Assembly (NCBI GenBank): GCA_040830765.1 | Contig: JBFOMH010000005.1 | Location: forward strand, 375,780 to 439,779 | Direction of reading: 5' to 3' | Length of the DNA stretch: 64,000 bases | DNA from: Puniceicoccaceae bacterium | GTDB taxonomy: Bacteria; Verrucomicrobiota; Verrucomicrobiia; Opitutales; Oceanipulchritudinaceae | Shown here: one piece after another, positions 42,001 through 48,000 of the stretch | How the letters are laid out: each line of letters begins with the position of its first letter | Position numbering within the stretch: position 1 is the stretch's first letter | Program-made: the position numbers

Positions 42001-45000
42001 CTGATCGCTGAGGACCTTGGGGAAATCCATGACGGGGTCCGCGAATTCCGTGACGCCCTCGGCCTGCCGGGTATGGCCATCCTCCATTTCGCCTTTGGGG
42101 GTGGCTCGGACAACCTCTACCTCCCCCACAATGTTGTGCCCAATTCGGTGACTTATCCCGGGACTCACGACAACAACACAACCCGCGGATGGTATGAGTC
42201 AGCCCCGGCCGCCCTGCAGGACCATGTCCGGCGTTACCTGAGGGTCGACGGGAGCGATATCGCCTGGGACATGGTCCGCTGGTCCTACCAGTGCCCAAGC
42301 CGCCTGGTCGTCATCCAGATGCAGGACATCCTCTCCCTTGATGGCGAAGCTCGCATGAATGAACCCGGCACCAGCCAGGGTAACTGGAAGTGGCGCATGA
42401 CTGGCGAGGCCTTTTACAACCAGCAGGACAGTGCGGATTACCTCAAGGAGCTGGCTCGCCTCTACGGGCGTTAAGCCTTTCCGGCAAGATTGCCGATCGC
42501 GGCCGTCACTTCTTCCCCGGCATCCTCCAGAAGGTAGTGCCCCGCCTTTTCAAAGCGCTGGACCTCGGCATCGGGAAGAACGGATTGCCAATGGGCGAGA
42601 AACTTGTCGTGGAAGCACCAGTCATGCATGCCCCATAATAACTGGACCGGTTTCTCGCGCCATAAGGAGAGGCTCCTTTCCAGTTCCAGCAGGGTTTCGT
42701 AGCTGCGATGCGAGGAGCGCATGGGAATATCCCGGACAAAGGCGTGCAACGCCACCCGGTCATGCCAGTTGCCATAGGGTTTCAAGTAGCCTTCTGTCAC
42801 GGCCTCAGAAAGCGGCTCCACCGTCGTCATGCGGGTTGCCCTACGAGCAAAGGCATTGAGGCCACGGACCAGAAAAGCCCCCATAAACGGAAACCGGCAG
42901 GCCGCTATGCGGGCCGGGATCGTCGAAAACGGGAAAGCGGCTGTATTGAGAATACTGATACTCTTGATACGCTCATGGAGACGTGCGGCCATCCCCAGGC
43001 CAATCGGGCCGCCCCAGTCATGAACGACCAGATGAGTCGACTCGACACCCGTCGATTCCACCCATTCGCAGGCCCGCTGGACGTGGCCGGCCAGGGTGTA
43101 ATCGCCGGTTTGCGGTTTCTCGGAGAACCCGCAGCCTAGGTTGTCGAGCGCAAGGCAACGGTGCTTATGCCTCAACCCGAGAACCACGTCGCGGTAGAAG
43201 AAGGACCATGTTGGATTGCCATGGAACATCAGGATTGCCGGCCCCTCCCCTTCGTCGAGGTAATGCAGTTGACCACCGGAGGAGGCGAAGGTCTTCCCCT
43301 CGAAGGGATAGAGCACTTTTAGACGGGGTGGCAGTTCAGGCATTGTATCCCTCCACGGCTAGCATGACGGAGCTCAGGCCGCTGCCGATCCCCAAGAGGG
43401 AGGCGCGCCGGGATGCGTCCAGTTCTCCGGCCTCCACAGCCTTGTGAAACGTAAAGGGCAAGGAGACGGATCCCACGTTGCCCATGTATTCGAAAGTCGT
43501 GAAATCCTTTTCCCGGTCCAGTTCCAGGCTGTCGAAGAGGCGGCGCTGGTGGGTACGGCCCACCTGGTGGCAAATGAAGCAATCGGGTGTCTCCCGGTTC
43601 CAGCCAATTTCCTCCTCGAAGGCATCCCATGCCCCGGAGGCCAGGTTGATGCCCGCATCAAGCAGTTCCTCAGCATTGGTCTGCATCTCGAAGCCTTCAA
43701 TACCCACCGAGTCCCCCTGGCACAATTGATTGGCGGAGGAATCGGTCCGGGCCACACCACCAAGGAGGCGGAAGGAATCGCCCTGGGTGAGATCCTCCCG
43801 GGAAACCAGCATGGCGGCCGCACCGGCCCCTATGGTCAGGTTTGCAAAGTACGGCTTGACGGCATTGCGGTCGAGGTCGCCCTTCAGCAGAACGCGGATG
43901 GTATTCTCCAGCAAGGGCCGTCCGTTTTCCCCTGAGACCAGCAGGGCATGGCGGATTTGCCCGCTCTCAATAAGCCCTCCTGCCAGGACCATGGCGTTGA
44001 CAAAGCCGAGGCAGGCATTGCTGATATCGAGGATCTGGCAACTGCCGGGAAGGCCGAGGAGGCCATGGACATAGGCCGCCGTGGCCGGCTCCATCCGATC
44101 CCGGCAAACACCGCAATGGATAAGCAGGTCGATTTCTTCCAGAGGCACCCGGCCTTCATCAAGAAGGGTTCTCCCCGCTTCAGCGCTCCCCTGCGAAGGC
44201 AGAATATCGGTCTCCCAATAGTGACGTTCTTGGATACCGGTCATCATCTCCAAGCGCCCCTCTGGCAGACGGAGGCGTTCGTACATCGGGGCCAGGCGCT
44301 CCTCGATGTCGCTGGAAGTGACGGCAACCGGCGGAATAACGACCGCGGTCCCGTTAATGGCTACCCGGGAAAACCTCATTTTTGTGAATCGCTGGAAGGA
44401 TCCTTGCGACTGATGCGCTCCACGATGGACTCGTCGAAATAGTTCCAGTCCATGCCGGCATTGACGACAATGCCCTGGGCGTTGATCCCCGAACTGCGCG
44501 GACTGAGCAGGAATATCGCCGTGTCCGCGACTTCCTGGGTGGTCAGGGCTCGTTTGCGGTAGGTCAGCTGCTCCGCGTAAAGGTAGTTGTCGAGGTACCC
44601 CGGGATGCCGGCGGAGGACTTGGTCCTCAGAGGACCGGCATTGACGGAATTGAAGCGGATTTCTGAATCCGCACTGAAGGACTTGGCGAGGAAGCGCACA
44701 CAACCCTCGAGGGCGTTCTTGATCGGCGACATGTAGCCGTAGTTGGCAGCCGTCACGGAGGAGGAAATCCCAATCGCCACAACAGCCGCATCCGGCTTCA
44801 GGATTGGCTTCAGGCTGCGAGCCATTTCCACCAGCGAGAAAGCGCTAATCTGGGTCGCCTGCAGGAAGTCGTCCCGTTTCGTCTCATGGAAAGGAACAAA
44901 GCCCTCACTGAAATTGGCAAAGGCGATGGAATGGACGAAACCATCCAGCTCACCGTATTCCTCCCGGATGCGCTCCCCGAGGGAAGCCACGTCGTTCTCA

Positions 45001-48000
45001 TATTCGACATCGCAAAGGATGTGCGGTCGACCGTCGAGCAGCTTGGCCAGCTCGGATGCCCGCTCCTCATTGCGGACCGAGTAAATGACCCTGGCTCCCG
45101 CTTCCTCAAGGCCCTGACCGATTGCCCAGGCGACGCTGCGCCGGTTGCCCAGCCCGCAGATGAGGTATTGTTTGCCTGCCAGTTTCAGGAAATCCATTTC
45201 AATGCATCATTTGCCATCGCCATCTATCATGGCCAGCCCGAACTCCACCGTCAGGGCGGTCTTGCCATTTACGAGGACGCGTCCCCGCATGAAATGGAAG
45301 CGGCTCAGGGATTCCTTGTAGGTGGTTTCAATCCGGATGAGGTCCCCGGGACGGACCATCTGCTTGAACTTGGCCTCACTGATGCGGGTCAGGACAGGTG
45401 TCTTGCTTGCCCCGTCGACGCCCTCCTTCTCAAAGCGGCGGACCATGTAGATTGCCGCGGTCTGAAAAACGGATTCGCAGAGGAGCACTCCCGGCATCAG
45501 GGGATTGCCCGGGTAATGGCCGGCAAAATGCGGCTCGTCGGCACGGATTTCCCGCTCTGCCACGGCCCCCTCGTCCGTCACCTCGAGAATGCGGTCGACA
45601 AAGAGGAATGGCTCCCGGTGGGGAATGGTTTTGTAGATTTCTTCCATTATATAACAGTTCGGGCGGTCGTTCCGCCGATTAGCGCTTTTCTCCTTCATGG
45701 AGCCACTTGTCAACTTCGTTGGCCACGATGACCCCGTAATTCATTGTCCCGAGCCAGCCCGACATGATGATGCCAACGCTCCCGGCATGATAGAGCCCGG
45801 GCAGCTCATTCGGCAGCCGCTGGGAGACCTTGAGGCCCTCAAACTTGGTCCCAAAGGAGGTGCCGCCCATATGCCGGGTATAGTGATGAACCGTCCGCGG
45901 AGTCGCTGCCTCGACATGGTCCAGCTTCTGGCGGATATCCGGAATCAAGGTTTCCAATGCCTCGACTGAGCTTTCCTCGAGCCAGCGCTTCTCGGCAAGG
46001 TACTCCTCATCCGAGAGCTCCTTCCAATTGTCCCAGCGGGCGTTGATGGAGGCGACCACTGTATAACGCGGGTTCCTCGAGTGCGGCCGCGTGTCAGGAT
46101 AATAGACCGAGAAGGTGCGGCTGCTACTCCGCAGGCGGGTCAGTTCATCGGTAGAAAATCGCTCCGCCTGCGAGGTGAAGACGAGGTCCCCGATATGGGG
46201 GATGCTTTCCCCTTCTCGGATGCCCATGTAGACCTGGCAGGAACTGGTATTGACCCGCACCGCCTCCGCTTCACGGACAAAGGCCTCTGAAAAGTGCTCC
46301 TTTCCGGCCAGACTCAGGATCGTGTTCTTGATGTTGGCATTGGAGACCACCGACTGGCAGCGGATCTCGCGGGACGGGAAGGCTTCCCCGGTGTTCTGGC
46401 TGCGGGCCCTGACGCCGATCACCCGGGATTGGCCATCCTCCGTTTGCTCAACGAGAATCTCCTTCACCAAAGCACACTTGCGCAGCTCGGCCCCGTTGCG
46501 GCGCAGCTCCTCCACCATCTTCCGGATGAGCGTGTCCGTTCCCCCCTTGTAGATAAAGACGCCCTTGCTCATGAAGTTGGAAAAGACGATTCCATAGGTG
46601 ATCGCCGGGTCATCCAGTCCGGAGCCGTTGGCATAGGATATGGGCTCCATCAGGAGACGGTGGACGTCATTGCGCCCGGGAAAGTATTCCTCAAACAGTT
46701 CCTCGGTGGTCAGGCGGTCATCATCAAAGAAGTTCATTCCGGCAAGCCGGGCGAAGAATGCCTCCACCTGCTCCCGCTCAATCCCAAACTCCTCCACCAG
46801 GATGCGGATGAAGTCCGCCTTGTCGAAAGTGGTCTGCAGGTCCATCTGCGGATTGATGAAGCGGACATCCTTCAGTTGCTCGATGGAATCAGCAATCTCC
46901 CGTGTCCAGTACTTGCGGCAGGACTTGATCATGCCGTGCGGGAATCCGTGCAGGGAAATGTCGAAGATATGGCCGCCCGGGCGCTTGAACCATGTCGCCA
47001 GGCCGCCGTACTGGTAATGATGCTCCAGGACGAGGACCTTGCGACCCGCCTTGGCAAGGACGTTGGCGGCCGTCAATCCACCGATGCCACTACCCACGAC
47101 AACCACGTCATAGGCCGGTGCGACACCTTCTAGCCAATCTTTCGCCATACGGATAGGCTTTGCTAGCCGTGGGACGCATCAGCGCAACCCAAATCGGCCA
47201 TTAGGTAAAATCAACAGGCTTTAGCCTGTTTTTAATAACTCTCGCAAAGTTCCTTGACGGGCTTGCTCCTTGCCTCTTTACAGGCACTTCATCGCTTTTC
47301 CACTGAGAACCGTCTCAAAATCAAAAAGCAAAGATGTCCTACAAACTCTTCATTCCCGGGCCCATTGAGGTCTCCGCCAAAACTTACAAGGCCATGACGA
47401 CGCCGGTCTTCGGCCATCGCAGTCCTGACTTTGTCGAGCTCTACCAGTCCGTGCAGCCCGGCTTGCAGGAACTGTTTTATACCAAGGACCCGGTCTACAT
47501 TTCCACCAGCTCCGCGTGGGGCGTCATGGAAGGTTCCATCCGCAACCTCGTCCACAAGAAGGTCCTCAATGTCTGCTCGGGGGCCTTTTCGGACAAGTGG
47601 TTCGACGTCTCCAAACGCTGCGGCAAGGAAGCCAAAGCCCTCCAGTACGAATGGGGCACCCCGGTCGACCCGGAGGACATCCGCCGCGAACTGTCCACCG
47701 GCGAATTTGATACCATTACCCTGATCCATAACGAGACCTCCACCGGAACCATGAATCCTCTCCCGGAAATCATGGCCGTTCTCCGTGAATTTCCGGATGT
47801 AATCTCGGTCGTGGACAGCGTCAGCTCCTTCTCCGCGGTCAAGATTGCCAAGGATGAACTGGGCATCGACGTGCTCCTGACCGGAAGTCAGAAGGCCCTC
47901 GCCATGCCGCCGGGTATGGCCCTGCTCTGCGTCTCCGAACGCGCGCGTGAGCGGGCTGCCACCATGCCGGATCGCGGCTACTACTTCGATTTTCTCGAGT

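Follow-up and report, generated by a model that had tools for sequence, protein, structure and literature searches.

The window, a 64,000-nt stretch of contig C5 (JBFOMH010000005.1, assembly GCA_040830765.1) of a Puniceicoccaceae bacterium of the order Opitutales, carries five consecutive minus-strand genes at positions 42471..47148. The order crt1-fabZ-fabI-oleA-oleB given by the initial annotation was confirmed:

crt1, 47148-45679, minus strand: 489 aa, FAD protein with CrtI/CrtISO fold (PF01593 and PF13450)
fabZ, 45647-45207, minus strand: 146 aa, cluster-specific dehydratase (PF07977 and NF000582, above cut-off)
fabI, 45197-44376, minus strand: 273 aa, enoyl-ACP reductase (PF13561; FabI models match, below cut-off)
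oleA, 44379-43336, minus strand: 347 aa, head-to-head condensing thiolase (NF006720, 401.6 bits against a cut-off of 285)
oleB, 43343-42471, minus strand: 290 aa, putative beta-lactone decarboxylase, a haloalkane-dehalogenase-like hydrolase (PF00561; NF002873 below cut-off)

We infer co-transcription of these genes solely from their intergenic spacing, which amounts to 31, 9, -4 and -8 nt from crt1 to oleB. Contigs from public RNA runs were uninformative in this respect, as one of them spans convergent genes and may thus reflect DNA or unstranded signal; a promoter scan returned 0 sites, and terminator-like sites occurred at chance level.

The catalytic Glu, Cys and His of OleA align with those of PDB entry 3ROW (E 2e-64), the Xanthomonas OleA. 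The OleB label is putative and draws on gene context, since oleB sits among oleA, oleC and oleD in complete loci. H44 and E58 of FabZ are conserved in 73/73 cluster copies, and Y153 and K160 of FabI in 58/58. The other FabZ of the genome is an LpxC-FabZ fusion on contig C15. The fabI gene had been called a second copy, which proved incorrect: tblastn of the genome finds only this gene itself, and the other enoyl reductase is a FabV on C18.

The rest of the system in the genome

A KS-ACP-crt2 unit had been pieced together from two contig ends, and this unit is real: C31 and C25 share an overlap of exactly 141 nt, a length that recurs in four other contig pairs of the genome, and an 85-aa ACP reads across the overlap into crt2. 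An oleC-oleD pair lies on C28, and its homologues (39-51% identity) adjoin oleA and oleB in complete loci. The 11-gene system is thus split over C5 (the window), C31/C25 (KS, ACP, crt2) and C28 (oleC, oleD). Its ketoreductase is probably borrowed, judging by sequence comparison: fabG adjoins crt1 in 45 loci, where the copies share a median identity of 55%, and in this genome these cluster copies invariably match the housekeeping FabG best (36-44%).

The four KS genes of the genome are all stand-alone, with open frames of 410-439 aa. Neither a multi-domain KS-MAT-ACPn-KR or KS-CLF-DH protein nor PfaD was found in the genome, in agreement with the earlier statement that it holds no Pfa-type polyketide synthase. 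FabA/FabB and three membrane-desaturase-family genes are also present and could supply double bonds. Squalene/phytoene synthase (PF00494) was not found in this 96.9% complete genome and was detected in 8 of 14 controls.

Distribution across phyla and exclusion of Pfa synthase

The close co-occurrence of crt1 and OleA was reproduced. Among 241 Verrucomicrobiota genomes, 61 hold crt1, 60 OleA and 58 both, two weak crt1 matches (G132 and G197, E ~1e-13) having been dropped as non-orthologues before counting. Crt1, crt2 and KS occur together in 61/61 genomes and in 0/19 others. Retention in small genomes also held, with OleA in all five tested 0.8-0.9-Mb genomes that carry crt1; OleA was found in 0/5 tested genomes of the order that do not. 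The description of the pathway as near-core was overstated, as crt1 occurs in 162 of 201 genomes of the order and three families score 0/10.

Nor is the system restricted to Opitutales, as the initial annotation had implied. The arrangement KS-ACP-crt2-crt1-(fabG)-fabZ-fabI appears under ten phylum labels, often beside oleABCD, and all 11 genes share one locus in eight cases with four different gene orders. FabI belongs to the module in most lineages and is non-adjacent in Desulfocapsaceae loci. One natural crt1-FabZ fusion exists (P0123). In the 111 crt1 loci inspected, the 11 genes are joined by no further family that recurs across lineages. A search for OleA on plasmids gave no match. As judged from the alignments, the cluster enzymes carry the active residues of a discrete-enzyme type II FAS/PKS in KS, ACP, dehydratase and enoyl reductase: the KS Cys-His-His triad is intact in 57/57 copies and the ACP Ser motif in 53/53. 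The KS additionally has two family-specific histidines, H109 (57/57) and H134 (55/57). A PDB search gave no close solved relative for KS, FabZ or ACP.

We found a mutual exclusion of crt1 and PfaD among OleA genomes of three phyla, which is new here. OleA is present in 133 of 563 genomes from these phyla; 97 of them hold crt1, 33 PfaD, none both and three neither, so that one of the two suppliers accompanies OleA in 130/133 cases. PfaD is likewise missing from all 102 crt1 genomes, five of which have no OleA match. Within Verrucomicrobiota, the PfaD model (TIGR02814) matches 0/61 crt1 genomes, including the one studied here, and both of the two OleA-only genomes. One Pfa genome (G070) carries oleA in an uninterrupted block with pfaD and Pfa-type multi-domain genes. 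In a quick tree, whose FabH outgroup has a long branch, 20 of the 21 OleAs linked to Pfa group in a single clade, with three label changes. The exclusion therefore reflects few independent events, which may be one to three old ones, and products may differ between the two OleA lineages.

Fold and predicted chemistry of the flavoproteins

The initial annotation had placed the flavoproteins far below carotenoid models, and this holds for crt1, which reaches 104, 100 and 75 bits against CrtD, CrtISO and CrtI models with cut-offs of 550, 587 and 238, i.e. about one fifth to one third of the family cut-offs. A PDB search with the crt1 sequence alone recovered only the FAD motif, and a profile reached 4REP and 4DGK. 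The crt1 model (pLDDT 92.5) matches 4REP best (Z 32.8, rmsd 3.0, 436 aligned residues, 18% identity), as does the crt2 model, so that both are predicted to adopt the CrtI-type FAD fold. Among solved structures, carotenoid desaturases come closest (Z 31-33). The Propionibacterium acnes fatty acid isomerase PAI (2B9W) belongs to the same fold family and scores well below them (Z 23.5 and 22.7). Crt1 and crt2 thus have the FAD fold in common with CrtI, CrtD, CrtISO, retinol saturase and PAI, but they are only 12-22% identical to these enzymes and, unlike the carotenoid flavoenzymes, occur within an acyl-ACP pathway and without a carotenoid backbone gene.

FabA dehydratases have an Asp where the FabZ type has Glu. 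The cluster dehydratase has Glu in 73/73 copies, which leaves the gene set without an isomerase. We tentatively predict, at slightly less than an even chance, that crt1 and crt2 fill this gap as acyl-ACP double-bond isomerases.

Discussion

The first interpretation of this locus combined a private type II synthase, two CrtI-fold flavoproteins and OleABCD into one pathway, and the co-occurrence counts and the eight 11-gene loci uphold this core. Its scope was too narrow: the system crosses phyla, and its distribution is complementary to that of Pfa, which points to de novo building of polyunsaturated chains rather than tailoring of ordinary fatty acids. That the module is a private supplier of OleA we consider highly probable. 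Its predicted product is likely a methylene-skipped polyene of the C31:8/C31:9 type. On balance, we favour the reading that the type II synthase replaces Pfa and feeds a skipped polyunsaturated acyl-ACP, probably 16:4, into C31:8/C31:9 olefins, with cis bonds set by the flavoproteins, for which isomerase is the most likely role.

In this scheme, the system would consist of one KS, one ACP, FabG, FabZ, FabI and the two flavoproteins, together with OleABCD. KS, FabG and FabZ, whose intact catalytic residues suggest this step, would carry out elongation on the private ACP, each round ending with a 2-trans bond. FabI would then reduce this bond at C4, C10 and C16. The flavoproteins would retain the remaining bonds as cis, isomerising 2-trans to 3-cis at C6 and C12 and, at C8 and C14, 2-trans to 2-cis; this is the least certain step and would be the counterpart of the two FabA-type domain steps in Pfa synthases. 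Finally, OleA would condense two 16:4 chains and OleD, OleC and OleB would convert the product to a C31:9 (or C31:8) membrane olefin, a known chemistry applied to a predicted product.

The Pfa route, as described, proceeds through 3-cis intermediates at C6/C12 and 2-cis intermediates at C8/C14 (PMC11962503) and requires two kinds of isomerisation (PMC4882568). In Pfa-OleABCD systems of C31:9 producers such as Shewanella oneidensis, Photobacterium profundum and Geobacter bemidjiensis, OleA is thought to take 16:4 straight from the synthase ACP (PMC6463001). As in our module, a dedicated KS/KR/DH/ER/ACP set acts upstream, often encoded adjacently, and OleA to OleD act downstream. Unlike Pfa, the module is made of discrete proteins with one KS and one ACP, lacks chain-length factor, AT and PfaD, and uses a FabI reductase, only a FabZ-type dehydratase and two flavoproteins that Pfa lacks. 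The two KS domains of Pfa differ in their preference for 3-cis and 2-cis substrates (PMC11962503), and the single KS of the module counts against a Pfa-like scheme. Other points against our favoured reading are the higher fold scores of carotenoid desaturases compared with 2B9W, the non-adjacent fabI of Desulfocapsaceae loci, the five crt1 genomes without an OleA match, and the FabA/FabB and membrane-desaturase-family genes of this genome. Canonical oleABCD systems (Xanthomonas campestris, Micrococcus luteus) likewise have four Ole genes and an OleA with these catalytic residues, but are fed ordinary fatty acids by the housekeeping FAS, whereas 97 of the 133 OleA genomes in the three phyla sampled hold the private synthase.

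Three other readings are each improbable. Within the same pathway, the flavoproteins could be desaturases acting oxidatively on an acyl chain that already has double bonds, as in the 2009 proposal of Rattray and in the earlier idea of tailoring. Their best fold matches are indeed CrtI-type desaturases, and in Desulfotalea psychrophila the reported 13C depletion of C31 polyenes resembles that of some monounsaturated fatty acids (PMC2649909). However, a full KS/KR/DH/ER set already yields a double bond in each round, and no conserved electron-acceptor partner gene accompanies crt1 in the 111 loci. CrtI chemistry, moreover, extends conjugation and gives no methylene-skipped cis bonds. Anammox phytoene-desaturase-like proteins, which may not be orthologues of crt1/crt2, did not replace CrtI (PMC4790861).

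Equally doubtful is the view that the flavoproteins act in this pathway as retinol-saturase-like reductases, which would 1,4-reduce conjugated dienoyl- or polyenoyl-ACP to a cis-3 or skipped bond. JGI automatic labels name many crt1 relatives 'all-trans-retinol 13,14-reductase', and conjugated polyenes are readily formed by one KS together with KR and DH, as in aryl-polyene-type systems. Against this, the module of most lineages already has a reductase, namely a FabI whose catalytic residues are intact; the chain-length factor that partners the KS of aryl polyene systems does not recur in the 111 loci.

We give similarly little weight to a third possibility, in which OleA receives from the module a special chain of another kind (one that is conjugated, shorter or less unsaturated) and the end product differs from C31:8/C31:9. 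It would suit the largely separate lineages of crt-linked and Pfa-linked OleAs, the family-specific KS histidines, and the C31:9 reports, which cover Gemmataceae (Gemmata with a pfa-like cluster) and Lacipirellula parvula. It fits less well with the presence of one supplier or the other in nearly all OleA genomes, and with D. psychrophila, described as making C31:8 and C31:9 without Pfa (PMC2649909), whose family carries the module. An ordinary carotenoid or hopanoid function of the flavoproteins in an incidental neighbourhood, as CrtI-family annotation and fold might suggest, is largely refuted by the low model scores, the failure to find a squalene/phytoene synthase, the FAS and ole linkage under ten phylum labels and the FabZ fusion.

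Our preferred reading, a Pfa-replacing synthase with cis-setting flavoproteins, has a precursor in the literature. The initial annotation had found no paper on the coupling, which stands for the link to Ole: a search that covered main texts, mostly outside subscription journals, returned no paper that links the module to Ole or contrasts it with Pfa. It does not stand for the flavoproteins, since Rattray 2009 had already linked the C31 polyenes of a Pfa-free bacterium to phytoene-dehydrogenase-like genes located in FASII clusters (PMC2649909). According to that account, D. psychrophila produces C31:8 and C31:9, lacks a PUFA PKS and carries the flavoprotein genes DP2405 and DP2406, and its FASII cluster, like that of Kuenenia stuttgartiensis, combines FASII genes with PF01593 flavoproteins, as here. 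The anaerobic PUFA route proposed there stresses radical-SAM enzymes and desaturation and, as far as the account goes, makes no mention of Ole (PMC2649909); neither a radical-SAM nor a membrane-desaturase partner was seen in the 111 crt1 loci. Five loci of the D. psychrophila family (L068, L101, L119, L121, L127) carry tandem crt2-crt1 within the module, and by this synteny DP2405/DP2406 are likely crt2/crt1; of the best 120 relatives of Desulfopila crt1, none of those with a name belongs to D. psychrophila itself. The anammox ladderane cluster, as described, has a different make-up, with a B12 radical-SAM enzyme and a non-canonical second FabF (PMC10139942), neither of which recurs in the 111 loci.

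The module offers a compact set of genes on which to test a question open since 2009, namely how C31:8 and C31:9 polyenes are made without Pfa or O2, and may represent an undescribed O2-free way to polyunsaturated chains. It is possible, if rather less than probable, that it constitutes a third omega-3-type route beside O2-dependent desaturases and Pfa, in which flavoenzyme isomerases serve aerobes and strict anaerobes of about ten phyla to make a C31 polyene. If this is true, flavin-dependent setting of cis bonds on acyl-ACP would be a new enzyme chemistry, and seven genes for soluble proteins would provide an alternative to the Pfa megasynthase for the engineering of polyunsaturated chains. 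The retention of the module in 0.8-0.9-Mb genomes points to a lipid of importance to the cell. Opitutaceae strain TAV2 is reportedly a C31:9 producer, and Schlesneria and Singulisphaera also count among the known ones. Planctomicrobium piriforme is named among the crt1 relatives, and our literature search found no lipid data for it. The reading of C31:9 as a lipid marker would also change, with Opitutales, Lentisphaeria, Dehalococcoidia, Nitrospina and many sulfate reducers as candidate sources.

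The window operon and the remainder of the system

In the window, oleA and oleB share an operon with two fatty acid synthesis genes and crt1, one of the two CrtI/CrtISO-fold FAD flavoproteins of this system:

47148 to 42471, minus strand: crt1 flavoprotein, fabZ, fabI, oleA and oleB, five genes head to tail

The intergenic gaps are 31, 9, -4 and -8 nt and the gene labels are backed by Pfam and NCBIfam matches, so that the operon of the initial annotation stands as five adjoining minus-strand genes; its "second fabI" was wrong, because the operon FabI matches itself alone in the genome. 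OleA scores above the NF006720 cut-off (401.6 vs 285) and aligns, catalytic Glu, Cys and His included, with PDB 3ROW (E 2e-64), which we take to be the Xanthomonas OleA. On the Ole side, the genes belong to an established pathway. The 489-aa crt1 product reaches only 75-104 bits on CrtI, CrtISO and CrtD models with cut-offs of 238-587, and its nearest named relative (97%) carries the label Puniceicoccaceae. A 4-alpha-glucanotransferase gene is convergent with the oleB end of the operon; between it and a presumably MsrA-like gene (judged from its sequence) lies a lipocalin (Blc-like) gene at 40366-40926, which shows no sign of membership in the synthase module.

The second flavoprotein gene, crt2, lies in a KS-ACP-crt2 unit. 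The end of contig C31 and the reversed start of C25 share an identical 141 nt, an overlap length also common to four other contig pairs, and the order across it is KS (416 aa), ACP (85 aa), crt2, which bears out the joining formerly claimed from a split ACP gene. Crt2 is 24-25% identical to crt1 (profile E 2.9e-43), and an oleC-oleD pair lies on C28. Housekeeping fatty acid synthesis is encoded apart from the module (fabG-fabF on C10, LpxC-FabZ on C15, fabA-fabB on C9), as is the enoyl reductase FabV on C18. A cluster-type FabG is probably absent from this genome, in which all 45 cluster FabGs match housekeeping FabG best. The four KS genes of the genome are each stand-alone, and searches of the genome (96.9% complete) found neither PfaD, the enoyl reductase marker of the polyketide-type PUFA synthase Pfa, nor a phytoene/squalene synthase. 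The acyl supplier is neither a Pfa nor a carotenoid pathway.

Three membrane-desaturase-family genes lie elsewhere in the genome. A third PF01593 flavoprotein (534 aa; L003:3861-5462, on C9) has no similarity to crt1 beyond the FAD motif and no linkage to lipid genes, and a small FAS-like unit on C15 (L004:8451-11755, about 13450-16755 of the contig) comprises an ACP-FabZ fusion, a KS and an MGDG-synthase-like glycosyltransferase.

Distribution of the module across phyla

Of 241 Verrucomicrobiota genomes with a completeness of 90% or more, 61 gave a crt1 match after removal of two weak ones and 60 an OleA match; 58 contain the two together, in agreement with the co-occurrence claimed earlier. 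Thirteen of the crt1 genomes fall outside Opitutales, and all 13 have OleA; crt2 and KS were found in 61/61 crt1 genomes vs 0/19 chosen crt1-negative ones. A family-balanced sample of the order has crt1 in 162 of 201 genomes, with 0/10 in three families. OleA was present in 0/5 order genomes without crt1 and in all five tested crt1 genomes of 0.8-0.9 Mb, in line with the claimed retention of both genes in small genomes.

A scan of species genomes yielded at least 593 crt1 relatives, and the best 80, which were kept, carry ten phylum labels, including Planctomycetota, Thermodesulfobacteriota, Chloroflexota, Nitrospinota and Lentisphaerota. The order-level reading was right about the synthase-Ole link and wrong in its restriction to Opitutales. 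Within 10 kb of crt1 in these best 80 of at least 593 loci, many of them on short contigs, we found fabZ in 51, crt2 in 42, fabG in 36, ACP in 34, KS in 32, fabI in 29 and an ole gene in 25. In loci with enough flanking sequence, fabZ follows crt1 (42/58) and crt2 precedes it (34/55); one relative is a crt1-FabZ fusion. All 11 genes, seven for the synthase plus oleABCD, occur in eight fetched loci in four gene orders, one of which has oleABCD inserted between crt2 and crt1. ORF clustering of 111 crt1 loci gave no twelfth family common across lineages. In Lentisphaeria and many Opitutales the module genes are present but dispersed.

Some loci deviate in detail. In three Dehalococcoidia loci (L063, L065, L081), KS and neighbouring oleA/ACP genes are tandemly duplicated ahead of crt2-crt1; fabI is not beside the cassette in the Desulfocapsaceae-type loci L068, L082, L089, L091, L093, L100, L101, L116, L119, L121 and L127; and L176 and L180 have fabZ twice after crt1, with fabG absent from the locus. 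The lack of a neighbouring fabI might relate to the lipids of the Desulfocapsaceae member D. psychrophila, which are mostly C31:8 rather than C31:9. Genome G296 has three crt1 copies (L137, L138, L139), one in a full synthase cassette, and no OleA match, and its nearest crt1 relative, G255, gave no OleA match either; in these two the acyl chain may head to another product.

Mutual exclusion with Pfa

PfaD was sought in 63 of the 241 Verrucomicrobiota, comprising every crt1 and every OleA genome. Both OleA-only genomes have PfaD over cut-off together with multi-KS frames of 2,200-2,300 aa, which in G070 are contiguous with oleA; a PfaD match alone is not proof of a whole Pfa synthase. Two further phyla, sampled with completeness not reported, were reached via a Desulfopila locus (genome G241: 171 genomes, 18 with OleA; crt1 in 9, PfaD in 7, neither in 2) and a Planctomicrobium locus (G242: 151 genomes, 55 with OleA; crt1 in 30, PfaD in 24, neither in 1). 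Over the three phyla, 133 of 563 genomes have OleA, 97 with crt1, 33 with PfaD, none with both and three with neither; PfaD occurs in 0/102 crt1 genomes, five of which have no OleA match. G000, G241 and G242 are crt1-positive by selection. Shulse and Allen credited the C31:9 precursor to pfa-like clusters (PMC3098273), whereas among planctomycetes, the phylum of G242, 30 of the 55 OleA genomes carry this module and no PfaD.

A quick tree places 20 of the 21 Pfa-linked OleAs together in a single well-supported clade, with 3 label changes vs 19 in shuffles. These appear to be two old OleA lineages, each travelling with its own supplier, and the exclusion counts therefore do not represent as many independent events. 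In pairwise identity, OleA follows crt1 only loosely (Spearman 0.35; KS 0.64). The three OleA genomes with neither supplier marker (loci L169 in G417, L147 in G348, L148 in G412) have divergent OleAs, and L169 has two OleA-like genes.

Enzymes and proposed mechanism

Judged by their catalytic residues, the module enzymes look intact: KS Cys165/His303/His341 are conserved in 57/57, FabI Tyr153/Lys160 in 58/58, FabZ His44/Glu58 in 73/73 and the ACP serine motif in 53/53. The locus of the cluster KS is

L002:6608-7855: cluster KS

Cluster KSs stand on their own side of a branch, apart from six other KS rows, and carry two family-specific histidines, an invariant His109 and a near-invariant His134, at positions that are Gly and Phe in FabF and FabB; these two residues possibly select the substrate. 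Neither crt1 nor crt2 has a clear membrane segment. Their predicted models (confident, pLDDT 92.5 and 94.0) match the fold of the gamma-carotenoid desaturase 4REP best (Z 32.8 / 30.9, rmsd 3.0 / 3.5, 436 aligned, 18-20% identity), and reach Z 23.5 / 22.7 with 2B9W, a fatty acid isomerase from P. acnes. This common fold does not settle the reaction.

FabZ- and FabA-type dehydratases are separated by a Glu versus Asp rule. The module comprises KS, ACP, KR, a Glu (FabZ)-type DH and ER, and its sole extra genes are the two flavoproteins. The FabZ type is described as non-isomerising (PMC10139942). In the Pfa route, intermediates are 3-cis at C6/C12 and 2-cis at C8/C14 (PMC11962503), two kinds of isomerisation are credited to dehydratase domains (PMC4882568), and chain building requires no oxidation; Shewanella C31:9 arises from two 16:4n-3 Pfa chains, which OleA is thought to take off ACP (PMC6463001). 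Since the module's DH type does not isomerise and the flavoproteins are its only extras, the simplest fit is that crt1 and crt2 would carry out the two isomerisations. The supplier appears to do Pfa's job through a different enzyme set. Against this counts that Pfa has two KS domains for two kinds of cis substrate and the module has one KS. The flavoproteins could instead be desaturases or reductases, or a crt1-crt2 heterodimer with one activity. With small corrections, the initial observation is confirmed; the reading put on it has partial support and is drawn too narrowly.

Relation to earlier reports

Our literature search found no paper on the module-Ole link or the crt1/PfaD exclusion, and the available text of PMC7064751 and PMC13459092 has nothing on the KS-ACP-crt2-crt1 module. 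n-C31:9 is reported as widespread in planctomycetes (PMC6995999, PMC3327967), and the anammox proteins that resemble phytoene desaturases failed to substitute for CrtI (PMC4790861). Desulfotalea psychrophila was reported to contain C31:8 (4%) and C31:9 (1%), no PUFA polyketide synthase and three PF01593 genes (DP1860, DP2405, DP2406), and a new anaerobic route based on desaturases was proposed; Ole goes unmentioned in the available text (PMC2649909, Rattray 2009). Because five named loci of its family, Desulfocapsaceae, carry KS-ACP-crt2-crt1-fabG-fabZ, DP2405 and DP2406 are likely candidates for crt2 and crt1.
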